This document shows, in pieces, positions 33,155 through 52,064 of a stretch of 64,000 nt of DNA. Origin of the DNA: Candidatus Woesearchaeota archaeon (GTDB taxonomy: Archaea; Nanobdellota; Nanobdellia; Woesearchaeales; JABGXB01); NCBI GenBank assembly GCA_018675975.1, contig JABGXB010000003.1, forward strand, positions 267,821 to 331,820, given 5' to 3'. Numbering within the stretch: position 1 is the first letter of the stretch; each line of letters starts with the position of its first letter. The position numbers and the translations under genes were made by a program. Under the pieces are notes generated by a model, which was given only the letters and a program-made list of their open reading frames with translations, did not search any database and was not told the DNA's origin.

Positions 33155-33604
33155 ATGAAATGCCCACATTGTAATTCAGATGATTTGAAAGTAAATGAAA
33201 CAAGAGAAACAGAATCAAATAGTTTTAGAAGAAGAAGAGAATGCAATAATTGTGAAGAAAGATTTACTACATATGAAAAAATTCAAGAATTATTAATTAG
33301 TGTAAAAAAAGAAAGTGGAAAATTAGAAAATTATACTAAAGAAAAATTAGAAAAAAGTTTTTTGATTGCTTGTAATAAAAGACCAATAACAAGAATTCAA
33401 ATATTAAAAATTATTGAAAACATTGAAAATAAAATAAGAAATAATTTTAAAAATGAAATTTCATCTAAGACATTAGGTGAATATGTAATGGAAGAATTAA
33501 AAATTTTAGATCCAATATCATATATTAGATATGCTTCAGTATACAAAGATTTTGATGATTTAGATAAATTTAATCAAGAATTAATATTATTAAAGGTGAA
33601 TTGA
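33155..33604 (+). CDS. nrdR: transcriptional repressor NrdR (zinc ribbon + ATP-cone)
   Basis: 149 aa; MKCPHCNSDDLKVNETRE...RRRRECNNCEERFTTYE is the NrdR zinc-ribbon signature; directly abuts nrdJ. Confidence 0.85.
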   Translation: MKCPHCNSDDLKVNETRETESNSFRRRRECNNCEERFTTYEKIQELLISVKKESGKLENYTKEKLEKSFLIACNKRPITRIQILKIIENIENKIRNNFKNEISSKTLGEYVMEELKILDPISYIRYASVYKDFDDLDKFNQELILLKVN

Positions 33605-36600
33605 ATGGAACAAAGTATTGAAACAAAACGAACTGGTATAAAAGTTAAAAAAGTTTTTTGTAGTGATAATATAAGCCCATTTGAAACTGTTGAATTTGAA
33701 AACAGATCAAGTGTGATAAAAAATAGAGATGGTTCTATATTATTTGAAATAAATAATATTCATGCTCCAAAAAAATGGTCGCAAGTTGCCGTAGATATAA
33801 TGGCACAAAAATATTTTAGAAAAAGTGGAGTTCCACAATATGATGAAAATCAAAATGAAATTAAAGATGAATTTTCAAATATAATTACAGGTTCAGAAAC
33901 AGATATTACTCAACCAATAAAAAGATTAACTGGATGTTGGAGACATTGGGGAGAAAAATATAATTATTTTGATACGCAACAAGATGCAATTAATTTTGAA
34001 CAAGAAATACAATATATGTTATTACATCAAATCGCTGCACCAAATAGTCCACAATGGTTTAATACGGGACTTAAATGGGCATATAATATTTCTGGAAGTG
34101 CACAAGGACATTATTATGCTGAACATGAAACAGGTGAAATTAAATTATCTGAGGATGCATATTCAAGACCTCAACCGCATGCATGTGCGGATTATTATAC
34201 ACAAGTGTATACTGATAAGGGTACAATGTATATTGGAGATATAGTTGAAAATAATTTAACTAATATAAAAGTATTTGATGGAGAAAAATATGTAAAAGTT
34301 CTTGCAATCAAAAACAATGGAAAAAAAGAAGTGTTTAAAATTCAATTAAAAAATGGAAATTATATTAAATTAACTCAAGATCATTTAGTGCTATCATCAC
34401 AAAAAAGAAAAAAAAATGGTGGAAATTATAACTGGAATTATGTAAAAGATGTAAAATTAGGTCACAAATTACAACAACCATTAATTCTAGATATTAAAGA
34501 AAAAAATGTATTTAGTGATGATTTAGCAAAAGCAAGATTAGCCGGTTGGATAGTTGGAGACGGATCAGTTGGAATTTATGAAAATGTAATGAGATTGGAA
34601 ATTATTTCTATTAAAGAAGAAGAATTTGAATCAATAATAAATGATATTCAAGAAGTATTTGGACAAGAAGTTAATTTTTGGATTAGTAAATTTAAAACAA
34701 AAAACGAAAATTTAGATGGTAAAAGAATTCATTTAGCAGGTAAAAAAATACATAAATTAATTGAAGACTATGATTTACTAAAATCTTCATTTAATGCAGA
34801 AGTACCTCAAAAAATAATTAATGGGTCACCACAAGAAAAAAGAGAATTTTTAAAAGCCTTATTTCAAGCAGATGGTTGTGTCAGAATTAGAAAAGATGAA
34901 AATAGAAATTCAGGAGATGTGTGTTTAACTACAATTTCAGAAAATCTTTCATTTGGAGTTTTACAATTATTAAATTCATTAGGTATTTATTGTAGAATTA
35001 ATAAATATAGTGATAAAAGAGAAAATCGAAAAGATGTTAATCAAGTTATAGTATCTTATGGTAGTGCAAGAGAACAATTTCAAGAACAAATTTCTTTTAT
35101 ATGTTCTCAAAAAACCGAAAAATTAGAATTATTAAATAAAATTATAACAAAATCAAAAACACTTCCATTAATAAGAGAAGAAACAATTATTTCAATTGAA
35201 TCTGAAGGCATTAAAGATGTTTATGATATTCAAACAGAATCTTCAAAATTTCTTGGAAATGGAATTGTAATACATAATTGTTTTATTCAATCAGTTAAAG
35301 ATGATTTAGTTAATCAAGGTGGAATATTTGACCTTTGTACAAGAGAGGCAAGAATATTTAAATATGGTTCTGGAACTGGTTCAAATTTTTCACAATTAAG
35401 AGGTCAGTCTGAAAAATTATCAGGTGGTGGAAGATCTTCAGGTATGATGTCATTTTTAAAAATATTTGATGTGGCAGCTGGAGCAATTAAATCAGGTGGT
35501 ACAACAAGACGTGCAGCAAAAATGGTTTGTCTTGATTTGGATCATCCAGAAATTATTGAATTTATTGATTGGAAAGCAAATGAAGAAAAAAAAGTTGCTA
35601 ATTTAATTACTGGTTCAAAAAATTCAAAATATCATTTACAAAAAATATTAAAAGAAGCAAGTTCAAATTCAAATATAGAAAAAAATCCAAAATTAAAATC
35701 AGCAATTAAAGAAGCTATTGAACAAAATATTTCTTTAAATTATATTGATAGAGTTTTAAAACTTGCAAATCAAGGAATAACTGAATTTGAAACTCCCGAG
35801 TTTGATAATCATTTTGAAGGTGAAGCATATTCTACAGTTAGTGGACAAAATTCAAATAATTCAATAAGAATACCAAATTCATTTTATGAAGCTGTTCATA
35901 AAGACTTAGATTGGAATTTAAAAAATAGAACTGATGGAAAAATTTCAAAAACTGTAAGAGCAAAATGGCTTTATGATAAAATTGGACAAGCTGCTTGGGC
36001 TTGTGCAGATCCTGGTGTTCAATTTGATACGACAATTAATGAATGGCATACATGTCCAAAAGATGGAAGAATTAATGCAAGTAATCCTTGTTCTGAATAT
36101 ATGTTTTTAGATGATACTGCATGTAATTTAGCTAGTATTAATTTAATTCATTTTATTAATGATAGTGGACATTTTAATGAAGAAAAATTTGCTCATGCAT
36201 GTGAACTTATGACAATTGTTTTGGAAATTTCAGTTACTATGGCTCAATTTCCAAGTGATGAAATTGCAAAAAGAAGTTGGGAATATAGAACATTAGGTTT
36301 AGGTTTTGCAAATTTAGGGACATTACTCATGGTTAAAGGAATTTCTTATGATAGTGATGAAGCTAGAAGTATAGCTGGAGGAATTAGTGCCATAATGTGT
36401 GGAACTGCTTATGAAACATCTGCTAAACTCGCAAAACATCTAGGACCTTTTAACAGATATGAACATAATAAAGATGACATGTTAAGAGTTATTAGAAATC
36501 ATAGACGTGCTGCATATAATGTTTCAAATGAAGAGTATGAAAAATTAGAAATTACTCCAGTTGGCATTGATGAAAATTTATGTCCAAATAATATTTTACA

Positions 36601-38146
36601 AAAAGCTAGAAATTCATGGGATAATGCACTTGAACTTGGACAAGAATATGGATTTAGAAATGCACAAGTAACTGTTATTGCACCAACCGGAACTATTGGA
36701 CTTTTAATGGATTGTGATACTACAGGAGTTGAGCCAGACTTTGCAATTGTTAAATATAAAAAACTTGCAGGCGGTGGTTATTTTAAAATTGTAAATCATT
36801 CAGTTATTAAAGCATTGAGAACTTTAGGTTATGAAAAAGATCAAATTATTGATATTAAAAAATATTGTATAGGTCATCAAACATTAGTGGGTTGTCCAAC
36901 CATAAATCATAAAATTTTAAAAGATAAAGGATTTGATGAAGAAAAATTAGAACTTATTGAAAAACAATTAGAAACTGCATTTGATTTGAGTTTTGTTATG
37001 AATAAAAATATTTTAAGTGAAGAATTTTTAAAAAAATTAGGATTTAGTGATGAACAATTAAATTCTGAAATGTTTGATTTACTAGAAGAATTAAAATTTA
37101 CAAAAGAACAAGTTGATATTGCAAATGAATATGTTTTTGGAACAATGACAGTTGAAGATGCTCCATACTTATTAGAAGAACATTATTCAGTTTTTGATTG
37201 TGCAAATAAATGTGGAAAAAAAGGTAATAGATATATTGACACTTATGGACATATTAATATGATGGCAGCAGTTCAACCTTTTATTTCTGGTGCAATTAGT
37301 AAAACAATTAATATGGATTCAGAAGTTAGTGTTAAAGATATTTTAGATGCTTATGAAGCTAGTTGGAAATTAATGCTTAAAGCAAATGCATTATATAGAG
37401 ATGGATGTAAATTAAGTCAACCATTAAATACTGCTGTTTTTGAAAGTGAATACAATTTAAATTTATCTGAAGAAGATATTGATGAAACAGTTGATTCAGC
37501 AGCAATTCAACAACAAATTCAAACAATGAAAGCAAATCAGTTGCCGAGAAAAAGAGGTGGTTTTGTTCAAGAAGCAACTGTTGCAGGTCACAAAATATAT
37601 TTAAGAACTGGTGAATATAATGACGGAAAATTAGGTGAAATTTTTATTGACATGTATAAGGAAGGTGCTGCCTTTAAAGCACTAATAAATTGTTTTGCAG
37701 TTGCAATAAGTAAATCTCTACAATTTGGTGTTCCTTTAGAAGAATTTGTTGAACAGTTTACATTTACTAGATTTGAACCGGCAGGTTTAGTAACTGGACA
37801 TGAATATATTAAAAATTCTACGTCAATATTAGATTATGTATTTCGTGTTCTAGGCTATGAATATTTAGGTAGAGATGATTTAATTCATGTAAAACCTAAA
37901 AGAAAACCACTAGACATTATAGAACATGAAGATGATCCAAGAGATAAACATAAAACACTAGATAGTTTTTCTAATAGAAAAAATGTAGAAGAGACTAGAA
38001 ACGAAATGCTTTTTAAAAAAATTAATACTGCCAAATCAAGAGGATATACTGGAGAAGCATGTGGTTCTTGTGGTAGTATGAGAGTAAAAAGAAATGGAAG
38101 TTGTACACTTTGTGAAGATTGTGGTTCTACTAGTGGTTGCAGTTAG
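33605..38146 (+). CDS. nrdJ: ribonucleotide reductase, class II-like (adenosylcobalamin-dependent NrdJ type), containing one intein
   Basis: 1513-aa precursor; N-terminal [21 protein letters not shown] (class II WSQ..A.DI...KYF motif), active-site [22 protein letters not shown]-terminal Cys-rich zinc-ribbon tail; no nrdB nearby. Confidence 0.85.
34184..35278 (+). mobile_element. intein (365 aa) with LAGLIDADG homing endonuclease domain inserted in nrdJ
   Basis: Starts with Cys (PQPHA|CADYYTQVY), ends IVIHN followed by the +1 Cys (|CFIQSV); two LAGLIDADG blocks [11 protein letters not shown] and [11 protein letters not shown]; extein junction restores a contiguous PHACFIQS. Confidence 0.8.
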
Positions 38147-38248
38147 AAATTAATTTTTTTATTAAAATTTTATATTTAATTAATTATTAATTTTTTTATA
38201 TATTTTATAATATAAAAATTTATAAAAAAAAAATGATACGATAAATAT

Positions 38249-38572
38249 ATGTCAAAATACTTATCTATAGAAATGATATTTGATTCAATAAATAAAACAT
38301 ATAAAATGCGTTCTGAAGTAAAAGATGAAATGATAGAAGAATTCATTTCAGATTTCATGAGATCTGGTATAGTTGAATCTACACCTAACGGAGATGTAAT
38401 TGAAAGAAACGAATACAAAGTAATTTTACAATTACATTTTGGACCTGTTGACGACTATAGAATTCAAACAAATACAAATAATAGAGATTTAACTATGGGA
38501 ATAATATGTGGTGCATTAGGATACTTAAAGAGTAACCCAAAAATTGATACTAAATTATATAAGTTAAATTAA
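38249..38572 (+). CDS. hypothetical small protein
   Basis: 107 aa ORF with protein-like composition. Confidence 0.4.
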   Translation: MSKYLSIEMIFDSINKTYKMRSEVKDEMIEEFISDFMRSGIVESTPNGDVIERNEYKVILQLHFGPVDDYRIQTNTNNRDLTMGIICGALGYLKSNPKIDTKLYKLN

Positions 38573-38590
38573 TAAAATAATATCAAAAAA

Positions 38591-39103
38591 TTAATTCAAT
38601 TTATTACATAAATAATTAAATTCAGTACAGAAAAGTTCCAATCTTTCAATTATTTGATCATTAATAATTTCACTACCACTAATATCATTATATGTTGAAT
38701 AAACAAATCTTGGTAAAATAATACATCTAAAATCTAACATTAAGCTATTTACAAATGATAATGGTGCCATATAAGAACTTGAACCACCTGCAGAACATAA
38801 AATGCCAATTAATTTTTCACTTAAAGATTTTCCTGCAAGTTCAATTACATTTTTTGCTGAGCTATTAATATTATAATTATAAATTGGAAGTGCAAAAATC
38901 ACCCCATCTGCATTTTCAATTTGTTTTTTTAATTCAATTACATTAGTAAATTCATAACATTTCCCTGCATCACACATTGGCAAATCAAAATGAAATAAAT
39001 CGATAAATTCAATATCACAATCTAATCGAGATTTAACATATTTTGCAAGAATTCTACTTTTACTATCTTTATTTAAGCTTGTAGATATAATTAAAACTTT
39101 CAT
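38591..39103 (-). CDS. flavodoxin-like NAD(P)H-dependent FMN reductase family protein
   Basis: 170 aa; MKVLIISTSLNKDSKSRILAKYV ... GVIFALPIYNYNINSSAKNVIELAG typical of NADPH-dependent FMN reductase/ArsH-like flavoproteins. Confidence 0.6.
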   Translation of the reverse strand: MKVLIISTSLNKDSKSRILAKYVKSRLDCDIEFIDLFHFDLPMCDAGKCYEFTNVIELKKQIENADGVIFALPIYNYNINSSAKNVIELAGKSLSEKLIGILCSAGGSSSYMAPLSFVNSLMLDFRCIILPRFVYSTYNDISGSEIINDQIIERLELFCTEFNYLCNKLN

Positions 39104-39132
39104 AAAATTAGGATATAAATGAAATTTAAAAA

Positions 39133-39915
39133 TTATTTGTTTTTGTAAATTAATTCTTTCATTACTTTTTGAAATTCAATAGCATTTGCTTTGATATTTT
39201 CATAATCATGCCCTGAAATATTATCAATTTCGCCTTTTTCTAATTTCTTTGTAATATCATATAAATGAGAAAAAAAATGTACATGTTTTCCATCAAGTTT
39301 ATTCAAATTTACAAATCTGACTTGTAATAAATCAGGAATTAATTGTGGAAGTCCTGGCATTTCACCAATTTTCATTAAAGCTGCCTGAGATGAATCATAA
39401 CAAGCCCAATATAAATCTACAACTGCATTTATAATTTTTATTGAACTATTATGCATTGCTGCACAACTTTTTTTATAAAATTCGTTTATCATTTCTTCAG
39501 TTCCTTTTATTTTACCATCTTCTAAAAGATATTGTAAAGTCTCAAACATACCTAAATCATAAACTGGATAACCTGTTCTTAATATATTTACTAAAATTGG
39601 ATGACCTTTTTTTGCATAATCCCAAAAATTTGATAATTTTAAGGTTTGTAAATGAATTTTAAAATTAAGTTTTCTCAATATATTTGCAACTACAACCCTA
39701 TATGTTTGTATAAATTCCGCAGTTAATGCATATTTAACATCATCAACAACAATTAAAATATCTATATCACTTTGAGAATCATGATTAATACTCCAATTAT
39801 TTTCAGATATTTTTTTAACATCATATTTTGAATAAGATCCAAAAACTACAATTGTTTTAATAAAATTCTCAAGTTCAGGCAATATTTCTTTAGAAAACGA
39901 AATAGCATAATCCAC
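39133..39915 (-). CDS. Pol-beta superfamily nucleotidyltransferase with C-terminal helical (HEPN-like) domain
   Basis: 260 aa; minimal NTase motif VVFGSYSKYDV...SDIDILIVVDD followed by an alpha-helical C-terminal half. Confidence 0.5.
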   Translation of the reverse strand: MDYAISFSKEILPELENFIKTIVVFGSYSKYDVKKISENNWSINHDSQSDIDILIVVDDVKYALTAEFIQTYRVVVANILRKLNFKIHLQTLKLSNFWDYAKKGHPILVNILRTGYPVYDLGMFETLQYLLEDGKIKGTEEMINEFYKKSCAAMHNSSIKIINAVVDLYWACYDSSQAALMKIGEMPGLPQLIPDLLQVRFVNLNKLDGKHVHFFSHLYDITKKLEKGEIDNISGHDYENIKANAIEFQKVMKELIYKNK

Positions 39916-40023
39916 TTGCTTATCCGCATAAAATTTTTTATTAGGATGAGAATTTATATCGTATTTGAACTTAATTGGTACACCTCTGATTAAAAAATAG
40001 AATTGTGATTTATAAAATTAAGC

Positions 40024-41961
40024 TTAATTGTTATATTTATTAAAAATAAAAATACCAGAACCTAAAATAAATATACTAAAAAAGATAAAAATATACCAAA
40101 TTATATTAACCATTTTACTATTTGTACTATTTTGAATTTCATTTACAATAATATTGCTATTTAATGAATCTTCATTTGAATTGATATTAATATTATTTAA
40201 TTCTAAATTTAAATTTAATAATTTTTTTTCCATTTCATTTCTTTTTGATTCCATTTCTAAATTAATTTTATCAATCTTATTTTTTAATTCATTATTCATA
40301 TTATTAACATCCTTTGAATTATCAACAATATTTGAATTATCATTTAAGCATTTAATTACATTAATTGAAATTGATTTTTTCAATAATTCATTATTATTTT
40401 TATTAAATGCTTGTAAAATAATATCACGTTCCCCTAATTTATTATTAATATTATAATTAAAACTAAAAGATTGATCATCTCCTTCATCTAAACTAAATTC
40501 TTTATTTAATTCAATATCATCATCAGTTAATTGTAAAGTTAAGTCTTCAATATCTCTACTACCAACATTTACTAAATCTCCATTTATTTTTATACCATTA
40601 AATGAACATAAATCTATTTCTTTTGTATAAAATAAATTATCAATAATTAATTCTTCTCTATCTTTTTTTATTTTTACTCTGATAGTAAAATTTGCTTCAT
40701 GAAAATAACTCTCATTATCCAATACACTAGCATATAAATTGAAATTTGATCTTTCTTCTTTATTATCAAATGGTATTATTGATTCATCAAAATCAATATC
40801 AATAGTTTCACAATCATTTTTTACAATATCTAATTCTTCTTCATCAATATCAATTCTAAACATTTCACCATATAATCTTATATTTTCTAAATCTGTATTT
40901 TTTACATTACAAATTTTAACTTCAGCTGATATTTGATCCCCTACTTTAAAATCATCATCATAGGCTCTACCTGAATTATCAAAACGTTCTTTTTTATCAT
41001 TTCTATGTAATTTTACAAATTCAAATTCAAGTGGATTTTTAGGATTTACATTAATTTTTCCATCAATTGTAATTACTTCATTTAAAACATTTGTTAATTC
41101 TAATTGAAAACTATTTTCACCATAATTTAATTGAGGATTAAAAATAATATCATTAACTTCCAGTCCATTAAATTTCCATTTATAATTTACAATAAAATTA
41201 CTATTTGTTAAATCTAAAAATTGTTCATATAAGTTAAATGAACTTAAATCCTCTTCATTTAAATTAATAGTAATATTATTATTTAATGATAAAAAATCAC
41301 TATGTGTTTTATTTGTTACAATAGTATATATTTTCCCATTAGGAATATTATTACTATCATTTTTTTGAAATAAAACATGCAAATAAAGATTCTTATTTTG
41401 ATAATTAATTAAATCACCATCATTTAAAATAATTGTAAGTTTTTTATCACCGCCTTGATAAAAAGGATAAACATTCCAATCATCTTTATTTAAACCAAAT
41501 TTTTCATAAGTAAAATCATCATTTGAATTTAAAATTAAAGCATTCCATAAAAAATTCATTCCACTATTAATATATCTACTAATCAATTCTGAATATATTA
41601 TTTCATTTGAATCATTAGGTCTATCAATTACATTTATAGTTTCTTGTTTAATTTTATATTGACCTAAACTATTTTTTAAAATAAATGTAATATTATGAAT
41701 TCCACTATTATGATATACATGATTTATATTATTTAAATTATAATGTTTTAATTCATTTGTACCAAAATCAACTATTGAATAATCTAAATTAAAACCGCTT
41801 TGAGTTAAAGTATTTAATGTAAAATTAAAAGGCTCATTTACATAAATAGTTGTAGGTAATTCCACAGTATAATCCATACCATTTTCAAATACACCATTTA
41901 CAGAAATTAAACTAATTGATATAAAAAATATTAAAACTAATAATTTATTTATTATTTTCAT
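40024..41961 (-). CDS. large secreted surface (glyco)protein, C-terminal coiled coil + TM anchor; paralog of the upstream gene
   Basis: 645 aa; signal peptide, many N-x-S/T sequons, region homologous to 41973..44039 (DNSGRAYDDDFKVGDQISAEVKICN... vs RNSGERYSKDIKPGQDFSVEIKVCN...), C-terminal TM IIWYIFIFFSIFILGSGIFIF. Confidence 0.6.
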   Translation of the reverse strand: MKIINKLLVLIFFISISLISVNGVFENGMDYTVELPTTIYVNEPFNFTLNTLTQSGFNLDYSIVDFGTNELKHYNLNNINHVYHNSGIHNITFILKNSLGQYKIKQETINVIDRPNDSNEIIYSELISRYINSGMNFLWNALILNSNDDFTYEKFGLNKDDWNVYPFYQGGDKKLTIILNDGDLINYQNKNLYLHVLFQKNDSNNIPNGKIYTIVTNKTHSDFLSLNNNITINLNEEDLSSFNLYEQFLDLTNSNFIVNYKWKFNGLEVNDIIFNPQLNYGENSFQLELTNVLNEVITIDGKINVNPKNPLEFEFVKLHRNDKKERFDNSGRAYDDDFKVGDQISAEVKICNVKNTDLENIRLYGEMFRIDIDEEELDIVKNDCETIDIDFDESIIPFDNKEERSNFNLYASVLDNESYFHEANFTIRVKIKKDREELIIDNLFYTKEIDLCSFNGIKINGDLVNVGSRDIEDLTLQLTDDDIELNKEFSLDEGDDQSFSFNYNINNKLGERDIILQAFNKNNNELLKKSISINVIKCLNDNSNIVDNSKDVNNMNNELKNKIDKINLEMESKRNEMEKKLLNLNLELNNININSNEDSLNSNIIVNEIQNSTNSKMVNIIWYIFIFFSIFILGSGIFIFNKYNN

Positions 41962-41972
41962 TGTACCTCAAT

Positions 41973-44039
41973 TTAAATATAAACTAATAAAATAAGTCCA
42001 AATATTAACATCAATACAACACCAATTGCTATAATTAATAATATTGTTTGTTTTTTTTGTTCTGATTTATTTAAATTATCTTGTAAATCATTATCTAAAT
42101 TTATGTTTTGATTTTCTAATAATAATTTTTTATATTCACTAATAAAATCATCATTATTATTTTCAACACCATTTAATTCATTTAATAATTTTAAATTCTT
42201 TTCATATAAATCTTGATCAGTTTGAATATTATTTGAACAATCATTTAATGAAATATCTAATTCTTTATAGTCAACTATATAATTATCCCTATATACTTCT
42301 GCAAAAAATTTATACTGTCCAATGGATGCAGAATTTGGAAAATTAAAATTTGTGAAAGCACTAAATTCATTATCATTTTTATAATCAATATCGAAATCTT
42401 TTATTGATTCAAAATTGAATTGCTCTGAATAAAATCTAACATGCCCATTTTCATCATTATCACCAATATTAAATATTAATGCAGATAATGAAATTGCTTT
42501 ATTATCAAAACAATTTTGTACTACAGTTGGAGTTACTAAAAATTTTTTGAATAATAAATCATGATTTTTTCTATCTACTTTTAATTTAACTGTAAAATTA
42601 TCTTCTTGAAAATAATCTAAATCATCTCTACCTTCAATATTAATAAACATATTAAATGTTTTATCTTCAGCATCATAAGGAATGTGATCTTTATCAAATT
42701 TAACTGAACGTACTTCACACTCATCTTCTGATAATGTAAAATCTGATTTCTCATCATCATCTAAATCACTACCATCATCAATATCTTTTATTATAGCACT
42801 AATTGCAATATCTTCAATATTAATATCTGAATTACTATCATAATCATTACATACTTTAATTTCTACACTAAAATCTTGACCTGGCTTAATATCTTTTGAA
42901 TATCTTTCTCCACTATTTCTAATTCTATCTGATTTGTCATTAACAATTACTTTTACTCTATCAATTCTTAACATTTTTCTTTGAATCGGTTTAATATCTG
43001 CTTCAATCACTTTACCATTAAAAGATAATTTAATTTCACCCAATAAATCAATATCTATTGGACGACTTGAACTTGCATGAATATTAAATGTTTTATTTTC
43101 TAATTCATTTAATGCAAAATTAGTTTCAAAATTACTATATTCAATAAATGAATCAAAAGAACTAATATCTAAACCAATATTTTCTAAATTTGATTCACCA
43201 GTATTTTTAACAGTGAAATTAAAATCAAATTCAGATTCTAATCCACTAATATTAATTTGAATTTCATTAGGTATAATTGTTAATTCCTGTATTTTTTCTC
43301 TTACTTCAATATTTGAAATTTGATAATTTTTATTAAAATTAAATTCTGACTGATCTACATTTAAATCGTATTTATACAAACCGCTAACTAAATCATTACT
43401 AATAAAAACTTCAAAACTTAAATTTTTCACTTCAGATTTATTTAATAAAATTATTTTCTTTTCAACATCTAAAGGAAAAAAACTTGATGTTTTTAATAAA
43501 TTATTAAAATTAATTTCAACTTGAGTATCATAATTTGATTGACTAATAAATTCAAATTCAATAGTATTTGTTTTACCCTTTACTATTTTTTTTGTTATTG
43601 CCTTTACATCAAATTGTGTATTTCTAGAAATATCTAAACTAATTGGCAATAATGTTTGTTCAGATTTACTATCTGTTGCAATTATTGTCCCATTATATTT
43701 ACCATAAGTAGGATTATTTGATAAATCAATAAAAAAATCAACTGATTTTTGTCCATTAGCATCAAAATTTCCTAATTGTGCATTTACACCATTTAATTCA
43801 ATAGCTAAAAATTCACCATTAGCATTTGATAAAACAAGTCCACTAAGTGCAATATTTACATTTGTTGAATCTAAATTTGTAATTTTAAACTGACTATTAA
43901 CTTTAGATGTTCTAAGTCCATTACTTAAATCACTTAATTCTATACTTTCTTTGTCAAAATTAGGTACTGCATTACTAAATGCTGAAACTAATGTTGCAAA
44001 TATAATCAAAAATGCAAATAAATGCGTTAATTTTTTCAT
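41973..44039 (-). CDS. large secreted surface (glyco)protein, C-terminal TM anchor; paralog of the downstream gene
   Basis: 688 aa; signal peptide MKKLTHLFAFLIIFATLVSAFS, sequon-rich, homologous C-terminal domain, C-terminal TM ILLIIAIGVVLMLIFGLILLVYI. Confidence 0.6.
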   Translation of the reverse strand: MKKLTHLFAFLIIFATLVSAFSNAVPNFDKESIELSDLSNGLRTSKVNSQFKITNLDSTNVNIALSGLVLSNANGEFLAIELNGVNAQLGNFDANGQKSVDFFIDLSNNPTYGKYNGTIIATDSKSEQTLLPISLDISRNTQFDVKAITKKIVKGKTNTIEFEFISQSNYDTQVEINFNNLLKTSSFFPLDVEKKIILLNKSEVKNLSFEVFISNDLVSGLYKYDLNVDQSEFNFNKNYQISNIEVREKIQELTIIPNEIQINISGLESEFDFNFTVKNTGESNLENIGLDISSFDSFIEYSNFETNFALNELENKTFNIHASSSRPIDIDLLGEIKLSFNGKVIEADIKPIQRKMLRIDRVKVIVNDKSDRIRNSGERYSKDIKPGQDFSVEIKVCNDYDSNSDINIEDIAISAIIKDIDDGSDLDDDEKSDFTLSEDECEVRSVKFDKDHIPYDAEDKTFNMFINIEGRDDLDYFQEDNFTVKLKVDRKNHDLLFKKFLVTPTVVQNCFDNKAISLSALIFNIGDNDENGHVRFYSEQFNFESIKDFDIDYKNDNEFSAFTNFNFPNSASIGQYKFFAEVYRDNYIVDYKELDISLNDCSNNIQTDQDLYEKNLKLLNELNGVENNNDDFISEYKKLLLENQNINLDNDLQDNLNKSEQKKQTILLIIAIGVVLMLIFGLILLVYI

Positions 44040-44191
44040 TCATATCCTCTTATATACATATTTTAAATAATATTACCACAAAGCGGTGACATTTTATAAA
44101 TGTTATCAATTTTAACAAACATTGTTTATAAATGTCAAAAAAGATAAAAAAAGACTAAATTGTTTATAAATAAAATTAAAATAAATTATAT

Positions 44192-44701
44192 TTATTGGGG
44201 CAATTGGTTTAGTTTTTCCATAATAGATGAAAGTTCAGGCTTTTTTTCATAAAATGTATAATTTGCCATTTTCATAAAACTTCTAAAAACATCTAAATTT
44301 TCTATATTTGGACTTCCTAAACTAAAATTATAAATATAATCACTATCCAGTTTTGCGGGTGTTATTACACTTTTGTCATCAATAGAAACTAAATCCAAAT
44401 CATAAGCTCTTGCAACCCCCTGCATATCTCCAATATATTGTTTTAAATCCTCAAAAAAACTATTAACAGAAACTACATTATCAAAAGAATCTAATCTAAC
44501 TTTCGCTGATAAATTCAATCGTAAATTCAATTGATTTCCAAAAAATAATTTATATGCTAATCCACCATTAAACCCAACAAATATCCTTTCAGAAAAATCT
44601 TTGCACTCTTCTTCATCTGCAAATGACGTTTGGTTTAATGCTTGTACAAAATAACCATTTAATATTTCACGTTTATTAAAATCTAATTTTAATTTTTTCA
44701 T
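44192..44701 (-). CDS. hypothetical protein (first gene of the surface-protein operon)
   Basis: 169 aa ORF; no motif. Confidence 0.4.
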   Translation of the reverse strand: MKKLKLDFNKREILNGYFVQALNQTSFADEEECKDFSERIFVGFNGGLAYKLFFGNQLNLRLNLSAKVRLDSFDNVVSVNSFFEDLKQYIGDMQGVARAYDLDLVSIDDKSVITPAKLDSDYIYNFSLGSPNIENLDVFRSFMKMANYTFYEKKPELSSIMEKLNQLPQ

Positions 44702-44763
44702 TTTAAAAAAAGATTCAATAATTAACTTAAAAATATTGTTCTATATTTGATATACATATTTAA

Positions 44764-45111
44764 TTACATCAAACTAAGTCCTTTTATTACCCTATCAATA
44801 TTTTCTTCAGTATCTGGGCCAAGCCCCATACAAGTCACCGTTCCAGGTTCAACTACAGTTCTTCCTGCATCTGTTATAATTGCAGTTTTAATACCATATT
44901 CATCTGCTGTTGCTTTTAATCGATACAAATCTTTTTCATCATTTACTTTTACAACTACTTTTTTCATACCACTTTGTCTCCATGGTTTTACAATTTTATC
45001 ATTAGATCTCAAAACTGCTTCAACTGCACCATGAGCTACTTGGGCTGCTAATTTACCTTTAGGTAATTTCAAACTTGATATCACTATAATTGCTTGTTTA
45101 TATTCAGTCAT
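44764..45111 (-). CDS. pth2: peptidyl-tRNA hydrolase, archaeal/eukaryotic type (Pth2)
   Basis: 115 aa; KLAAQVAHGAVEA ... MKKVVVKV ... ITDAGRTVVEPGTVTCMGLGP are Pth2 hallmarks. Confidence 0.85.
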   Translation of the reverse strand: MTEYKQAIIVISSLKLPKGKLAAQVAHGAVEAVLRSNDKIVKPWRQSGMKKVVVKVNDEKDLYRLKATADEYGIKTAIITDAGRTVVEPGTVTCMGLGPDTEENIDRVIKGLSLM

Positions 45112-45154
45112 AATAGAAATAATAATTATCTTAATATAAATTTAACCAATTATT

Positions 45155-46825
45155 TTAATGAATTTTAACTACTTCACCAGTTAAAGATCTTAATTGATGT
45201 TTTGTAATTTTCACATCCACTTTTTTATTTAATGGAATTCTTCCTTTAATTCCAACAATTAATGGATACGTACCTAAATGTCTTGCAAAAGTTATATTTC
45301 CATCATAAATTTCAGTAATTAAATTTTTTAAAATTAAACCCTCTGGAGCAATTCGTTTTAACATAGGATTATCAATATTTTGACGAATATCATTTCTCCA
45401 TTTCCAATAATATTTTTGATTACGCTTTGTTTTTGACATTTCTTTTTTCATTTCACTTAATTTTGTCCCACCATAATCTACTACGCGTCTAATATTAATT
45501 CTTCTCAACATTAAACCATCATCATATATTTTTTTTAAACATTTCATATTAATTTCATGTGTTTTTTTAGTTTCACCAGGAAGACCAAATAAAAGATTAA
45601 GTCCAGGCAATAATTTTGGCATACCATTTGGACCTCTTTCAGACCCATATTCATTCACAATTTCAATAGCTTTCATTGTAATTTTTTGTTCACTATTTAA
45701 ATTATTTATTTCAATTATTTTTGGATCAAATGTTTCTGCACCAAATGCTGTTATATTACCCTCTGTAAAATATTTAACTGCAAGTTTTGTAATATCACGA
45801 CCCCATTTATGTTTTACAATAGTCCTTGGACTTACATTATCAATATGAAAATTTTCAATATCAGGACATGCACTCCAAATATCTTTTAATAATGATTCAA
45901 TTTCATCTTTATTTCCACCTTGATACATAAAAAAATCACTTTGTTTTCCTAAACGAAAACTTCTAATACCTAATTTATAAAATTCAACAACTTCATCATA
46001 AATATCTTTTTTTACCCTATGTTCAGTTCTATTTTTTAATGGTTCAGTACAAAAACTACATTTACCTGTTGAACAACCTTTTCCAGTTTCAATTTCAACT
46101 ATAACACGTTTAGGAAAAAGAGGATGTTGTTCTACTATTTTCGAACCTAATAAGCTAACTTCTCTATAATCATCAAAATTATATCTTTGTAAAAATTGAT
46201 CTCCATTATTTATATCTCCATTCGATTCAATTTTTTTAATTAATTCAATTAAATATGGTTCTTTATTTACATGTAAAACAAAATCAAATGAATCAATAAA
46301 ATCATATATTTTTTTATCAATTTTTTTTCCACCCTCGAGTTGAGTACCATGTTCACTTGCAGCAGGACCTGCAAAAATTTTAAAACAATTAAAATAAGAA
46401 GCTAATCTTTCAACTTCATGAATATTTCCAGGTATTGCACTTAAATATTTTCCAGGTACATGAATTCCACAAATAATAATTAATACCTTAGTATTTTTTA
46501 TTATTTTTTCAATTTCATCCAAACTTCTTGTTCTATTATAAATTGAAATATCAGTTTTATGATTTTTTTTTTCCTCACTAATTTCTTTTTTTAATTCAAT
46601 AGTTTTTTTATAATATCTTAAATCATCAACAGTTAAATAATTAGGATTAATTTTATTTTTTATAATTGCACCAGCAATATATCTAGGATAAGTGCCTAAA
46701 AAAGGAGGAACTCCTAAACCCGCCGGTTCATCGGTGTAAAAATCTAATATCGTATACATAAAAGAGTGAAAAATTAAAAGTTTATAAAAATACTCAATAC
46801 CATTTTTTAATATCTTTACATGCAA
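45155..46825 (-). CDS. radical SAM-like protein with N-terminal B12-binding-like domain; atypical CX4CX2C cluster motif
   Basis: 556 aa; IETGKGCSTGKCSFCTEP (Cys spacing 4/2 instead of the canonical 3/2); glycine-rich SAM-binding-like GGN and GETKKT motifs. Confidence 0.45.
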   Translation of the reverse strand: MHVKILKNGIEYFYKLLIFHSFMYTILDFYTDEPAGLGVPPFLGTYPRYIAGAIIKNKINPNYLTVDDLRYYKKTIELKKEISEEKKNHKTDISIYNRTRSLDEIEKIIKNTKVLIIICGIHVPGKYLSAIPGNIHEVERLASYFNCFKIFAGPAASEHGTQLEGGKKIDKKIYDFIDSFDFVLHVNKEPYLIELIKKIESNGDINNGDQFLQRYNFDDYREVSLLGSKIVEQHPLFPKRVIVEIETGKGCSTGKCSFCTEPLKNRTEHRVKKDIYDEVVEFYKLGIRSFRLGKQSDFFMYQGGNKDEIESLLKDIWSACPDIENFHIDNVSPRTIVKHKWGRDITKLAVKYFTEGNITAFGAETFDPKIIEINNLNSEQKITMKAIEIVNEYGSERGPNGMPKLLPGLNLLFGLPGETKKTHEINMKCLKKIYDDGLMLRRINIRRVVDYGGTKLSEMKKEMSKTKRNQKYYWKWRNDIRQNIDNPMLKRIAPEGLILKNLITEIYDGNITFARHLGTYPLIVGIKGRIPLNKKVDVKITKHQLRSLTGEVVKIH

Positions 46826-47051
46826 AAGTCCTATCTGCTTGCTTATTTAAATCATATGCCAGAATACACCATTGTTCTTCTTTATGCCATTCATTAGATA
46901 TAAAAACTATTTTTTTTGGTATTATATTTCTAATCGAAGTTTCACCTCTATAATTAGTATATAATAATTTAACTTTTTTATTTAAATCTATATCTTCCAT
47001 CATAAAAAATAATCCTTTATAATTTATAAAGTTAAAATACTCAAAAAACAT
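46794..47051 (-). CDS. hypothetical small protein
   Basis: 85 aa; overlaps the downstream radical SAM gene start by 32 nt. Confidence 0.4.
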   Translation of the reverse strand: MFFEYFNFINYKGLFFMMEDIDLNKKVKLLYTNYRGETSIRNIIPKKIVFISNEWHKEEQWCILAYDLNKQADRTFACKDIKKWY

Positions 47052-47651
47052 ATGACATATATTGATAATATGATAAGAATTACAAATGAAATCACATTAG
47101 AATTTGAAAAAAATATAATCAAAAAAAAAATCAATTATAATAATATTAATACTGAAAAATTATTAATTTTGTCAAATGAAATGATTCATGATTCAAGTAT
47201 ATATCAAAAAAATATAATTTTAAAATTTTCTACACTAATATATTGTATTGCAAAAATGATTAAAGAACAAAAAAATAAAAAATCAAATAATTTAGAAACC
47301 ATATTTTGTAAATATTATAATAATTTAAAATTAATGTACACTTATTTAAAAAAAAATAATATCAATAAATTTGAAAATAAAATAGTTGAAATTTTTAATT
47401 TAATTTTAAAAAATAATAATAAATTTAATATTTATATTCAAGACATAATTAATTCAACGACAATAAAAAAAGGCTCTAAATTAGTTGATCATGGAATAAG
47501 TATTGAAACAGTTAGTAAAATGACTGGTTTAAATCAATGGGAATTATATAATTATTTAGGTAAAACTAATTTTGAAATAGTATTAGATGAAAAAATACAA
47601 AAAACTCAAAAAAGGCTAGATCATGCTAAAAAAATATTTAATATAAAATGA
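47052..47651 (+). CDS. hypothetical protein with C-terminal HTH
   Basis: 199 aa; C-terminal GISIETVSKMTGLNQWELYNYLGKT helix-turn-helix; stop overlaps the next start by 4 nt. Confidence 0.4.
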   Translation: MTYIDNMIRITNEITLEFEKNIIKKKINYNNINTEKLLILSNEMIHDSSIYQKNIILKFSTLIYCIAKMIKEQKNKKSNNLETIFCKYYNNLKLMYTYLKKNNINKFENKIVEIFNLILKNNNKFNIYIQDIINSTTIKKGSKLVDHGISIETVSKMTGLNQWELYNYLGKTNFEIVLDEKIQKTQKRLDHAKKIFNIK

Positions 47652-48346
47652 AACAATTAATATTTGATGCAGGTATAATTATTAATTTATCATTAAATAA
47701 TTTACTTTGGATTTTACCAAAATTAAAAAAACAATTTAATGGAGAATTTATTATACCAAATGCAGTTGAATATGAAATAATAACAAAACCATTACAAATA
47801 AAAAGATTTAAATTAGAGGCAATACAAGTTTTTAATCAAGTACAAAATAAAACTTTAACTATTTCAAATGATAAAAATATAAAACAAATTTATGATCAAA
47901 TAGATCAATTAGCAAATACATCTTTTTCTTGTAATGGACAAATAATTAAAATTATACATAGTGGTGAAATTAGTGTTATTGCCCATGCAATTAATCAAAA
48001 TGCTACTGCAGCAATTGATGAAAGAGCTATGAGAGAATTATTAGAAAATCCAAATGGTTTCTTAAAACATCTTAAAAAAAAATTAAAAAGAAATATACAA
48101 ATGGATAAAGAAAAAATTAAAAAATTAAAATCTTTAACTAAAAATATACAAATAATAAGAAGCAGTGAAATTGTTACAATTGCATATGATTTAGGATTAT
48201 TTAATTTTTATATTGAAAAAGGAATTGAAAAAATATTAAAACAACCAAAAAAACAATTATTAGACTCTTTATTATGGGGAACTAAATTAAGAGGATGTAG
48301 TATAACTGATAAAGAAATAGAATATATTGAAAAAAAAGAAGTATAA
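47648..48346 (+). CDS. PIN-domain-like protein (putative nuclease)
   Basis: 232 aa; N-terminal LIFDAGIIINL (first acidic residue), IIPNAVEYEI and SGEISVIAHAINQNATAAIDERAM resemble the PIN catalytic motifs. Confidence 0.3.
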   Translation: MKQLIFDAGIIINLSLNNLLWILPKLKKQFNGEFIIPNAVEYEIITKPLQIKRFKLEAIQVFNQVQNKTLTISNDKNIKQIYDQIDQLANTSFSCNGQIIKIIHSGEISVIAHAINQNATAAIDERAMRELLENPNGFLKHLKKKLKRNIQMDKEKIKKLKSLTKNIQIIRSSEIVTIAYDLGLFNFYIEKGIEKILKQPKKQLLDSLLWGTKLRGCSITDKEIEYIEKKEV

Positions 48347-48347
48347 A

Positions 48348-49298
48348 TTAAATATCAGGTCTATCGAATTTCTTAGTTTTTGGTTTTTTTTCATTAAATT
48401 GAAATCTCTCAATTATATTTTCACCATCATTAGTATTCTTCATAACACCCCAGCCCGGAAATTTATTATCTTGATTGGCAGTATACATTTCTTTAATTTT
48501 AGGAATACCAAAACTCGGTGAATCCCCTTCAGCATTATCATATATATTTTTTAATTTATTTGCACTATACATAAAACTATTTTCTTGGCTTGAATTGTAA
48601 AAACCTTTTTTTAAATCTATTGAACCCGAAGATTCATATTCAGATTTTGAAACAAAATTATTAACTAAATTTTTATCTATTCCAGAATCAGTTAATTTTT
48701 TTATAATATCACTACGTAAATGTATATCCTCACCCACTTCATTAACTTGAACAACTTCATCAATATTAGGTTTAAAACCATCCATATCAATTTTAATTAG
48801 TTTAATAGGAGCATCTACTTCAATATTTTTTTGTTTAATTTCCTCATGTTCTATACTTTCTTCTTTTAAAATTTCAATACTATCTATATTTTTATTTTTT
48901 TCAAAATTTTTATTTTTATTTTCAACTATTTCATTATCCTTATATTTTTTTTTGAAAATAAACCTTTTTGCCTTTTCAATTAAATTAAATTTTTTATTAT
49001 AATCAATATAATTAGATTTATGTTCATTTTCACTTTGAGTTTTAAAATCAAACTCATAGTTAGGTTGATTTTGATTATTTGAATTAGAATTACTTGAAAA
49101 TATATTTAATAAATCCATTAAATTACCTATTTTTAATAATTTTTTAGGTTTATTTTCTTTAATATTGGAATTTTCATTTACTAAATCATCATTAAATTCA
49201 TTTTTACTATTTTTAATTAATTTTTTACTTTCTTTTACATTTTTTGTATTATTTTTTAATACTTTTTTTGATTTTTTTTTAATTAACATTTTTTCCAA
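48348..49298 (-). CDS. hypothetical low-complexity K/N-rich protein
   Basis: 316 aa ORF, strongly biased composition. Confidence 0.35.
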   Translation of the reverse strand: MEKMLIKKKSKKVLKNNTKNVKESKKLIKNSKNEFNDDLVNENSNIKENKPKKLLKIGNLMDLLNIFSSNSNSNNQNQPNYEFDFKTQSENEHKSNYIDYNKKFNLIEKAKRFIFKKKYKDNEIVENKNKNFEKNKNIDSIEILKEESIEHEEIKQKNIEVDAPIKLIKIDMDGFKPNIDEVVQVNEVGEDIHLRSDIIKKLTDSGIDKNLVNNFVSKSEYESSGSIDLKKGFYNSSQENSFMYSANKLKNIYDNAEGDSPSFGIPKIKEMYTANQDNKFPGWGVMKNTNDGENIIERFQFNEKKPKTKKFDRPDI

Positions 49299-49346
49299 AA
49301 TATAATAAAACCATTATTATTTAAATAATTAAGCATACGTTTATAA

Positions 49347-52064
49347 ATGAAAAATCTAATTTTATTAATATTGACAGGCCAAAAAAACATAATTAAAGTA
49401 GTGATAATACTAGCATTTTTGATGAGTATAGTGATTTTTTTAAATTACAGTCCATCATTAACAGGAAATTTAGTATATGACTCTAAAGCTTTGTTTAATG
49501 AATTTTTAGATGTTGAAATTTTAATTGGAGATAAAATAAATAAATTAACAGATCATATTGAAATAATTTTTGATGATGATATAGTGTTTAAAGGCAGTGT
49601 TCAAAATTTATTTGATGTTAAAGTAATTGTTGGAAGTAATAATTTATCAAGTTTTGAAGAAATAAAAGATTATACATTTAAAAATAATTTAAAAGGAAAT
49701 ATTTTAATTAAACCAGACTTAATAATTACATTAAATATCACAGGAAACAAAACTACAGCTCTTGATCAAAACAATTTAACTCTAACAAACATTACTTATT
49801 TTTTAAATTATAATGGAAGTCAATTAAATTTAGAGGAAAATGAATTTCAAATCATTGAAAATTATAAAAATCTTAATTCAAATTTAACTATTAATGAATA
49901 TTTAAATCAAACGAATAATACATTAAACGAACAAATATTAAATATAGTAAATCAAAATGAATTTAGTTTATCTAATCAAAGTAATTCTTTTAATATTATA
50001 GTACCAGCATCAATTATACAACAAAAATATAATAATATAATAAATATAAGTGAAAATAGTAATTTAAACAATTTAGTAAATGTAAGTATTGATGAATATG
50101 ATTGGAATATAACAAAATTATCGCATACAATTGAATCTAATAATGATAATATTATTTTAGGTAACTTAAAAATACAAGAAATTTATTTTGATTCAGTAAA
50201 TCCATCAATTGTATTTAATAATAATACAATCAATATAAATGAAAATAAAATTAGTGCAGAGTTTATACTAACTTTAGATGACGTTCAATTAAAATTTGCA
50301 AATTTAAAAAATATTGAAAATACAGTGAATTATTCTAATGATATAATAAGTAATTTATTAGAAAACAATTTGAACTGGTATGAAATTAGTCAAATTAATG
50401 GTGAATTTATTTCAGAGGATACAAATTTAGATTATGAAGTTCAAAAAATAAATGATTTTGATTATATAATTAATGGAACTAAAGACACATTATTTTTTGA
50501 TTTTTCAAATTTAAGTATTAATACAAGAGAATTTGACTATAAAAGTAATTCAGACACATTAGGTAAAAAGAATTTCACATTAAAAGTTACTATTGATAAA
50601 AATACTAAACAATATGATTATACAATTGACTTAGCCACATCATGTCAAGAAAATTGGGTTTGCAAACCAGGAACTTGTTTAGCTGACAATACACAAAAGA
50701 ATAATTGTATTGACGAGAATGGATGCGGTACACAATTTTTAAAACCAGTTGAAACCAAAGCCTGTGTTTATAGTTGTACTCAAAATTGGAATTGTACTGA
50801 ATTTAGTCAATGTAATGAATTAAATTTTCAATTTAGAGTTTGTACTGATAAAAATAATTGTCAAAAATATAATAATACTGCAACTAAACTAATTGAAAAA
50901 GAAAAATTAAGTGAAATTCAAAGTTGTAAAGATAATTGTAATGAAGACTGGAGATGTACATCTTGGTCTTCCTGTTCTAAAGATCAAATATATAGAAGTT
51001 GTACTGATAAAAATACATGTGGAAGTGAAATATTAAAACCCAAAGTCGAAGCAAGTTGTAATGAAATAGTCGATGATCAATATTTAAAAATTTATGAAAA
51101 ATTCTTAGAATCTGAAAATTATGTTAATTTATTAAATCCAAAAAAAAATGAAAAAACAGCAAAAAATACATTGATTGAAAAAAAAGAAGAAAAAAAAGAA
51201 ACGAAAACAGAAAATAGATTAGTTGGTTTTTCAATAAAAGAAGAAGATAATTCAACATCTAGCGGAAAAATTATTATTTTTGTATTAATTGCAATGGGAG
51301 TATTATCATTTACATTTAATGAAAGGGGAAATATAAAACAATTTGTTGGTGAAAGTAATAAAAAAGAATATTTTAAAAATTATTTGAATATTAAAAAACA
51401 AAAAGTTTTACAATTATTTAATAGAAATAATGATGAAAATAATCAAAACAATCAAGAGAATAATCAATTTAATAATTTAAGTTATAATTATTCAAACAAT
51501 ATACAAAGTTCTAATATGGATAATAATGTTAATAATAATGATACAAATAACAATTCAGACAATCAAAATAATTTTAATCAAAATATAAAAATTAATAATT
51601 ATAATCCGAATAATCAATCTCAACAATTAAATTCATACTTAAATTATTATCAAAAATTAGGATATAATGATTATCAAATTAAAAGTTTTTTAATGCAAAA
51701 AGGATACAATTTAAGTCAAATAAATGGTTCATTTAATAGTCAATTAGGTCAAAATAATAATGAGAATAATAATATAAAAAAAGAATTTCATTTTGCAACA
51801 GCCGAGAGTAATAAAAAAACTCATCAAATTACAGTTAATAAAAATATATTTAATAATGCATTAGGGCTATTAAAAAATGATTTTGGAATTGCAAAAGCAC
51901 CAACATCTTTAGTTGCAAAAAGAAATTTTTCATTTACTATATCTCTTATTGAAAAAAATGTAGATGAAAATACTATAATTGAAATATTAAAAAAAAAAGA
52001 CATTAGTGAATCAAATGCATTAGAATTAATTGATAGAGCTAAAGAAAAATTAAATAAATTCTAA
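49347..52064 (+). CDS. large membrane-anchored surface protein: sequon-rich ectodomain, three Cys-rich repeats, TM helix, N/Q-rich tail
   Basis: 905 aa; N-terminal TM/signal anchor; three repeats of about 45 aa of the pattern C..NW.C......C......R.C.D.N.CG....KP.....C; TM IIIFVLIAMGVLSFTF; then a prion-like N/Q-rich region. Confidence 0.6.
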   Translation: MKNLILLILTGQKNIIKVVIILAFLMSIVIFLNYSPSLTGNLVYDSKALFNEFLDVEILIGDKINKLTDHIEIIFDDDIVFKGSVQNLFDVKVIVGSNNLSSFEEIKDYTFKNNLKGNILIKPDLIITLNITGNKTTALDQNNLTLTNITYFLNYNGSQLNLEENEFQIIENYKNLNSNLTINEYLNQTNNTLNEQILNIVNQNEFSLSNQSNSFNIIVPASIIQQKYNNIINISENSNLNNLVNVSIDEYDWNITKLSHTIESNNDNIILGNLKIQEIYFDSVNPSIVFNNNTININENKISAEFILTLDDVQLKFANLKNIENTVNYSNDIISNLLENNLNWYEISQINGEFISEDTNLDYEVQKINDFDYIINGTKDTLFFDFSNLSINTREFDYKSNSDTLGKKNFTLKVTIDKNTKQYDYTIDLATSCQENWVCKPGTCLADNTQKNNCIDENGCGTQFLKPVETKACVYSCTQNWNCTEFSQCNELNFQFRVCTDKNNCQKYNNTATKLIEKEKLSEIQSCKDNCNEDWRCTSWSSCSKDQIYRSCTDKNTCGSEILKPKVEASCNEIVDDQYLKIYEKFLESENYVNLLNPKKNEKTAKNTLIEKKEEKKETKTENRLVGFSIKEEDNSTSSGKIIIFVLIAMGVLSFTFNERGNIKQFVGESNKKEYFKNYLNIKKQKVLQLFNRNNDENNQNNQENNQFNNLSYNYSNNIQSSNMDNNVNNNDTNNNSDNQNNFNQNIKINNYNPNNQSQQLNSYLNYYQKLGYNDYQIKSFLMQKGYNLSQINGSFNSQLGQNNNENNNIKKEFHFATAESNKKTHQITVNKNIFNNALGLLKNDFGIAKAPTSLVAKRNFSFTISLIEKNVDENTIIEILKKKDISESNALELIDRAKEKLNKF

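Follow-up and report, generated by a model that had tools for sequence, protein, structure and literature searches.

Gene layout and a shared C-terminal module

The subject of this analysis is a pair of adjacent genes encoding proteins of 645 and 688 residues (hereafter A and B, respectively) on a 64,000-nucleotide stretch of DNA from a Candidatus Woesearchaeota archaeon (contig JABGXB010000003.1, positions 267,821 to 331,820 of the forward strand; referred to hereafter as the window, whose numbering is used for all coordinates). Together with a 169-residue open reading frame (ORF; C169), these form three co-directional minus-strand ORFs in a window of about 18–29% G+C, as an earlier note made from the sequence alone had listed and an ORF check bore out. 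The same note's attribution of the DNA to a DPANN archaeon agrees with the NCBI name of these exact proteins, both A and B being entered as “hypothetical protein [Candidatus Woesearchaeota archaeon]”. What the analysis shows directly is the structure of the genes, their homology, how large the family is and how its members are built, the fold that is predicted and the synteny of the locus; with moderate confidence, we read B and A as Sec-exported, transmembrane (TM)-anchored envelope proteins, for which a structural S-layer or S-layer-associated role is the likeliest.

The two proteins are homologous towards their C-termini (BLASTP E = 5e-17 at 25% identity; HHalign probability 98.1%). The earlier note had confined this homology to a domain of about 150 residues; the relationship is real, but its extent is closer to 250 residues (A288–540/B329–603), with an identity of 25–27% over the module. 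Neither BLAST nor HHalign detected similarity between the N-terminal ~290–330 residues of A and B. Paired cysteines are indeed present in both proteins, as two aligned pairs rather than the one previously described (A351/384 equivalent to B397/441, and A452/538 to B510/601). Both chains are acidic (Asp + Glu versus Lys + Arg: 99 versus 59 in A, 114 versus 69 in B), and neither deserves the epithet “giant”, given family members of up to 2809 residues.

An AlphaFold2 (AF2) model of full-length B (predicted local distance difference test score, pLDDT, 84.2) comprises a signal helix, five β-sandwich domains (D1, residues 45–137; D2, 143–247; D3, 253–352; D4, 357–488; D5, 495–599), a linker of low confidence and, last, a TM helix. 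The module of A, modeled from a 78-sequence alignment, is likewise predicted with confidence as two β-sandwiches (pLDDT 90.8; predicted template modeling score, pTM, 0.80). Arrays of β-sandwich/Ig-like domains, a trait of the S-layer class, are thus predicted for B (five) and for the module of A (two), and the expectation that structure prediction would reveal Ig-like or CARDB-like repeats was confirmed, at the level of fold class only.

Near-invariant family positions (numbered as in B) are P386, N398, D421, P454, C510, N524, G526, G574, Y576 and C601. The D5 pair, C510/C601, is kept in 83–84 of 85 family members; the D4 pair, C397/C441, is found in 6 of the 85, its two cysteines always co-occurring. 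Such co-occurrence is consistent with disulfides and, by extension, with a location outside the cytoplasm; both pairs are probably disulfide-bonded. The acidic DDGxDLDDE loop in D4 of B and most of the family probably binds divalent cations. The module of A retains neither the DDGxD loop nor its nearly invariant aspartate.

Predicted signal peptides, membrane anchors and linkers

Hydropathy places a signal peptide and a C-terminal TM anchor on both A and B, as the earlier note had proposed, and the AF2 model of B adds helices at residues 2–20 and 661–687; secretion signal and membrane anchoring, a further trait of the S-layer class, are therefore predicted for both. The N-terminus of B is charged and then runs into the hydrophobic segment MKKLTHLFAFLIIFATLVSA, with probable cleavage between VSA and FS; that of A has the same organization, its hydrophobic segment ending ISLISVNG, with probable cleavage between VNG and VF.

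The linkers that separate module from anchor had been described as coiled coils. Shuffled sequences reach the same heptad contrast in 5% of cases for A and 11% for B, and AF2 gives the linker of B two short helices (residues 608–622 and 632–642; block-mean pLDDT 37–74) and no others; the coiled-coil assignment is not established, and a long coiled coil ahead of the TM helix, of the kind found in SlaB, was not seen in the AF2 helices of B or in the heptad shuffle test of either protein. The B linker is also compositionally atypical, its Ser/Thr/Pro/Ala/Gly content being 7% versus a family median of 44%.

Many family members end in a [ST]F[RK][DE]S..Y-like motif, a TM helix and a basic tail (median of two Lys/Arg). 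Of this C-terminal layout, resembling the signal to which the name of the NCBIfam model NF033506 (discussed below) points, A and B have the TM helix and lack the motif: the [ST]F..-type motif is present in about half of the relatives and absent from A, B and the B ortholog. No basic residue follows the helix in B or its ortholog, and a single lysine does so in A.

The description of A and B as glycoproteins with dense N-x-S/T sequons found no support. A contains 9 sequons where 10.7 are expected (shuffles 11.0 ± 3.1; observed/expected 0.84) and B contains 8 where 9.7 are expected (shuffles 9.6 ± 2.6; observed/expected 0.83), both within one standard deviation of the shuffles; the observed/expected ratio in the other ORFs of the window is 1.05.

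Table 1. Features of the A/B locus in window coordinates
Feature	Coordinates	Strand	Basis and remarks
Gene B, 688 aa	41973..44039	-	ORF; canonical for the family; predicted order of parts is signal peptide, five Ig-like domains, polar linker, C-terminal TM helix
Gene A, 645 aa	40024..41961	-	ORF; second member of the family, highly diverged; has a GAGGT ribosome-binding site of its own
C169, 169-aa ORFan	44192..44701	-	Adjoins the locus, outside the conserved unit
Nucleotidyltransferase, 260 aa	39133..39915	-	Pfam NTP_transf_2/Polbeta; syntenic neighbor marking the orthologous locus
Putative promoter region upstream of B	44070..44133	-	Two TTTATAAA TATA-like boxes; GAGG ribosome-binding site further downstream
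B predicted signal peptide, aa 1–20	43980..44039	-	Hydropathy; AF2 helix, residues 2–20; (-3,-1) rule read off the sequence
B distal ectodomain D1–D3, aa 45–352	42984..43907	-	AF2; fast-evolving; no relatives found besides the ortholog
B conserved membrane-proximal module, aa 353–603	42231..42983	-	D4 (Cys397/441, loop IDDGSDLDDDE) and D5 (Cys510/601); exhaustive profile search
B polar linker, aa 604–660	42060..42230	-	Rich in N/E/K/L/D/Q; two short low-confidence helices
B predicted C-terminal TM helix, aa 661–687	41979..42059	-	Hydropathy; AF2 helix, residues 661–687; no basic tail
A predicted signal peptide, aa 1–23	41893..41961	-	Hydropathy; cleavage site read off the sequence
A N-terminal ectodomain, aa 24–287	41101..41892	-	No relatives detected (BLAST, HHalign); sub-threshold PKD match at aa 33–101
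A conserved module, aa 288–540	40342..41100	-	Two predicted β-sandwiches, all four Cys kept; AF2, HHalign versus B
A polar linker, aa 541–614	40120..40341	-	Borderline heptad pattern
A predicted C-terminal TM helix, aa 620–640	40042..40104	-	Hydropathy; followed by NKYNN

A large family defined by the module

An exhaustive search of 1.84 billion representative proteins with a profile of both modules (A plus B) recovered 1078 clusters at E ≤ 1e-3, 592 of them at E ≤ 1e-10. Among the best 150 of the 1078, the median distance from the end of the module to the C-terminus is 75 residues, a C-terminal TM is present in 139 and a signal-like N-terminus in 121, and the region upstream of the module varies in length between roughly 30 and 2500 residues. 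N-terminal domains within the family include Cadherin_5, He_PIG, Big_9, PKD and MG2, and a genome may hold several paralogs at different loci (at least four in JACPIE01, for example). The module is what defines this large Woesearchaeota/Pacearchaeota family, in which the distal domains upstream of it are freely exchangeable. Certain chains contain the module twice or three times (proteins P0005, P0014, P0037 and P0120, and those at loci L017, L025, L029 and L032).

Almost all named relatives, and almost all of the 28 genome loci compared below, belong to metagenome-assembled genomes (MAGs) of Woesearchaeota or Nanoarchaeota. Some module-carrying contigs bear other labels, namely “Desulfovibrionales bacterium” (L026) and “uncultured Methanosarcinales archaeon” (the binchicken MAGs L008, L010, L011, L014, L019, L023, L025, L032 and L033); these probably reflect mis-binning or placeholder taxonomy.

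The existing database entry that covers the module is NF033506 (PACE-CTERM-PROT, “putative S-layer protein”), which 80 of 85 members match at E ≤ 1e-3 (best 1.8e-62) and in which the module corresponds to model positions ~229–490 of 627 across the members checked. Residues 324–512 of A align directly to positions 229–442 of the model (37.4 bits when the whole protein is scored, 41.9 bits when just the module is; E = 1e-9 to 5e-11). B gave no match at E ≤ 1 as a whole protein or at E ≤ 10 as two halves, and possesses the core module by way of the 78-sequence family profile, against which it scores 229.5 bits (A, 134 bits).

Other resources were less informative. Pfam scans of A, B and family members returned no model specific to the module; PKD matched A at residues 33–101 below threshold (E = 0.015; 15.7 bits versus a cutoff of 23.5), and CARDB (PF07705) matched neither A nor B. 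The module profile found nothing in the PDB at E ≤ 10, and PHROGs gave no match. A word-index homology search with A recovered A itself only, and one with a 22-sequence module profile recovered 11 proteins; a profile scan of genome contigs with B and its ortholog, and two scans of metagenome contigs, found none. In the literature we found no description of PACE-CTERM, no Woesearchaeota S-layer structure and no experimental work on NF033506.

Comparative context of the locus

In the window, C169, B and A are flanked upstream by a peptidyl-tRNA hydrolase (PTH2) and a radical-SAM gene and downstream by a 260-residue nucleotidyltransferase and an FMN reductase. The sole ortholog of B, with an identity of 43.5%, comes from L001, a contig of 4 kb on which the order is PTH2, B ortholog, nucleotidyltransferase ortholog, with neither C169 nor A. 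Between window and contig, PTH2 is 79% and the nucleotidyltransferase 69.5% identical, and identity along B varies by domain: 48% in D1, 25% in D2, 36% in D3 and 50–55% in the module. Per-domain amino acid identity was used in place of dN/dS (the ratio of nonsynonymous to synonymous substitution rates), since both the A–B (25%) and B–ortholog (43.5%) comparisons lie far past saturation of synonymous sites. For A, no ortholog was found by word-index, exhaustive profile or metagenome-contig searches.

Same-strand tandem arrays of two or three module genes occur at 8 of the 28 Woesearchaeota loci, and the view of tandem surface paralogs as a recurring layout is to that degree vindicated. At 8 of the 28, the last module gene is followed within ~2.6 kb by a nucleotidyltransferase ortholog, six of these eight being array loci; this linkage across loci points to an ancestral locus with variable copy number. 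The nucleotidyltransferase orthologs (L017–L023, L031 and L001) are full-length, with 30–35% identity in eight loci, and are directly adjacent in half of these eight. They are convergent with the arrays in eight loci and co-directional in the window and L001; the linkage of the enzyme to the surface-protein locus is conserved. The groundwater arrays L020–L023 consist of a ~360-residue protein (signal peptide, module and TM), then one of 850–950 residues and sometimes a third of 530–620; the short ~360-residue form is missing from the window.

The same note had presented A and B as diverging tandem duplicates. The module of B scores 100–115 bits against other family members and 63–65 bits against A; a recent tandem duplication was rejected on this ground, B being closer to those members than to its neighbor. 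B is nonetheless the nearest relative of A by a small margin, and both carry the rare D4 cysteine pair. A is thus a strongly diverged copy, old or very fast-evolving, and in our reading species-specific.

Five independent assemblies (L002–L006; four NCBI MAGs and one from ENA) are 100.000% identical to the window at the nucleotide level over positions ~33600–52100, the identity extending through A and B and over 18 kb of flanking DNA, and recorded variants of A differ by single residues only. Because these loci were retrieved by exact match to the C169 protein, identical strains are over-represented in the sample. A search for direct, inverted or tandem repeats and for cassettes linking A, B and their surroundings returned only chance-level AT-rich matches. 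The same genes are found on a 1.03-Mb JGI contig (3300072015). The population looks clonal and seems to have been sampled widely, and the genome may be essentially closed.

Transcription units and neighboring genes

The earlier note had treated all three genes as one operon. The 152-bp spacer between C169 and B contains TATA-like boxes and T-runs, the latter following the C169 stop codon, and shares a ~65-nt block upstream of B with the 137-bp PTH2–B spacer of L001. Because this block and its TTTATAAA boxes are kept despite different upstream genes, and given the T-runs, B most likely has a promoter of its own, with function deduced from conservation. A scan for sigma-70 promoters and terminators was uninformative (62 sites versus 60.8 expected). 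B and A are separated by 11 bp, each gene having a GAGG-type ribosome-binding site, and their co-transcription is plausible. A plausible two-gene unit is what survives from the operon proposal; a three-gene unit is not supported, given the conserved region upstream of B and the absence of C169 from L001. C169 matches only itself among 5.8 billion proteins, has no Pfam, NCBIfam or PHROG match and shows no signal peptide or TM segment; it is a lineage-specific ORFan, unrelated to A and B and without the standing of a conserved operon partner.

Three other features of the window lie on the plus strand. A 1513-residue ribonucleotide reductase at 33605–38146 contains an intein with a LAGLIDADG homing endonuclease (precomputed Pfam matches Intein_splicing and LAGLIDADG_3). 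At 47052–48346, a 199-residue protein that lacks a Pfam match overlaps the start of a 232-residue DUF3368 protein, and the two may form a small two-gene module. A 905-residue ORF that lacks a Pfam match, at 49347–52064, is kept in all the identical assemblies.

A model for A and B at the cell surface

In the model that we favor, A and B would each be exported via Sec with a cleavable N-terminal signal peptide and tethered by the single C-terminal TM helix in a type-I topology, such that a chain of Ig-like β-sandwich domains extends outward. The conserved ~250-residue module, which comprises the two membrane-nearest domains, would be held by its cysteine pairs and make membrane-proximal lattice-like or stalk contacts of a surface coat, leaving the fast-evolving distal domains to face the environment or a host, with which A or B might make contact. 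B would represent the canonical copy at the ancestral locus, where it adjoins the nucleotidyltransferase and has a conserved promoter region to itself. A would be an extra copy, probably co-transcribed with B, that has lost the acidic loop. A role of the S-layer type, which the earlier note had also suggested, fits the sole existing label of the shared module, that of NF033506.

Several points weigh against this model. Neither A nor B attains the NF033506 cutoff of 110 bits; ten Woesearchaeota relatives checked singly also fall under it (45–95 bits or no match), scores which suggest that the curated model describes a narrower full-length group. The top fold matches are generic Ig-like domains, with no solved S-layer protein among them, and there is no enrichment of sequons. 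Signal peptides and TM topology were called from hydropathy and AF2, and export, disulfides, cation binding, lattice formation, abundance and surface location are properties that we infer. Finally, several paralogs per genome and N-terminal parts of 30–2500 residues would fit a general surface-display anchor, presenting adhesin-like domains in or on the layer, as well as they fit a single S-layer subunit.

A bolder version of the envelope model assigns the parts: the module would be the lattice-forming or membrane-spacing unit of an as yet uncharacterized Woesearchaeota/Pacearchaeota S-layer, B, at the ancestral locus linked to the nucleotidyltransferase, its main subunit and A, in view of its missing cation loop and orphan distal region, a lineage-specific protein inserted into that layer for recognition of host or substrate. 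We regard this as a tentative proposal that may well prove wrong; if true, any distal ectodomain fused to the module would be displayed within that S-layer.

Host contact or antigenic variation might instead be the principal function, with distal domains recognizing the host and paralogs supplying or exchanging variants. The distal domains of B diverge fastest (25–36% identity, against 70–79% for the neighboring genes), the N-terminal region of A is unique with no relatives detected, the family includes the adhesin-type domains listed above, and the source is a DPANN archaeon, a group whose cultivated members, according to PMC11291902, all need contact with a host cell. The variation part of this proposal fares poorly: the five assemblies are identical throughout A, B and their flanks and variants of A are confined to single residues (within a sample biased towards such identity), there are no repeats, silent cassettes or tandem repeats to drive gene conversion, and exchange of segments between A and B would be impossible for distal parts that share no similarity. 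On balance we consider adhesins or antigenically varying proteins an unlikely primary identity for the pair, and the locus gives the earlier note's idea of antigenic variation no backing.

Given that A and B are adjacent and probably co-transcribed, they could also be imagined as a two-component S-layer resembling SlaA/SlaB, one protein forming a coiled-coil stalk and the other an outer canopy. SlaB of Sulfolobales has a 132-residue trimeric coiled coil and a C-terminal TM, and its gene sits beside a second S-layer gene (PMC10903991); the likeness to A and B, which is looser than that of csg discussed below, consists of N-terminal β-sandwiches, a helical segment, a single C-terminal TM helix and a neighboring S-layer gene, and the heptad pattern of the A linker is borderline. 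The partner SlaA, however, is unanchored, whereas A and B are paralogs of the same architecture, each with module and TM anchor, and neither resembles a canopy; the helices of the B linker, at 11–15 residues and low confidence, are far from 132 residues, and L001, with a B ortholog alone, indicates that the pairing is not conserved. We judge a division of labor of this kind very unlikely.

More improbable still is that the C-terminal helix serves as a cleaved sorting signal of the archaeosortase or “PACE-CTERM” type, leaving mature A and B lipid-anchored. The tripartite C-terminus (motif, TM helix, basic tail) of many family members and the very name of the NCBIfam model point in this direction, but A, B and the B ortholog lack the motif, B and its ortholog lack any basic residue after the helix, no archaeosortase turned up in the window (no search aimed at one was made) and no paper on PACE-CTERM was found. 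The idea that A and B are not functional surface genes, having arisen as ORFs by chance or being pseudogenes in decay within an AT-rich genome, can be set aside as barely credible: A is highly diverged, lacks an ortholog and has lost the acidic loop, yet frames of 645 and 688 codons are by our own arithmetic not expected by chance at about 20% GC, ribosome-binding sites precede both genes, the AF2 models are confident, and the signal peptide, four cysteines, near-invariant module residues and TM helix are kept in both.

Relationship to known systems

Woesearchaeota are abundant, uncultured and probably host-dependent, and we found no literature on their cell envelope. In one metatranscriptome, S-layer genes were among the ten most highly expressed Woesearchaeota genes (PMC11606122), although membership of those genes in the module family is not established. 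With a confident model, cysteine pairs, an acidic loop, more than 1000 clusters and a syntenic locus, the module offers a target for envelope proteomics and for the interpretation of cryo-electron tomography. It also warrants a proper domain definition, Pfam having no specific model and NF033506 being too narrow for most members. For the window itself, the gain is a better annotation of two “hypothetical proteins”.

The likeness to CARDB (PF07705; PDB 3idu, Pyrococcus PF1109, with bound metal ions) is that of a generic Ig-like fold only: HAP2 domain 3, RbmA and the Ig domains of GH2 score as well as or better than CARDB.

In archaeal S-layer proteins of solved structure, Ig-like domains likewise form arrays, anchored by a TM segment or a lipid, and csg of Haloferax volcanii has six such domains, the penultimate of which binds cations at lattice contacts (PMC8640222). 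A and B have no sequence or specific fold match to csg. What they share with it is a layout: a signal peptide, an Ig-like array (six domains in csg, five in B), a highly divergent distal domain and a spacer ahead of the anchor. In csg, the lattice contacts made by the penultimate domain involve acidic residues together with divalent cations, a feature with which the acidic loop in the module of B may be compared. They differ at the membrane, where csg uses a PGF-CTERM/archaeosortase lipid anchor and an O-glycosylated Thr-rich spacer (PMC8640222), in contrast to the plain TM helix, N/E/K-rich linker, absence of a PGF-type signal and unenriched sequons of A and B.

The closest relationship is with NF033506, which has in common with A and B both the module itself and the order of parts (signal peptide, variable Ig-like domains, module, linker and C-terminal helix). 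A falls below its cutoff and B is unmatched, and the pre-TM motif and basic tail of many members are missing from both. The family is thus known yet uncharacterized, and A and B add to it a sound, fairly ordinary envelope locus.

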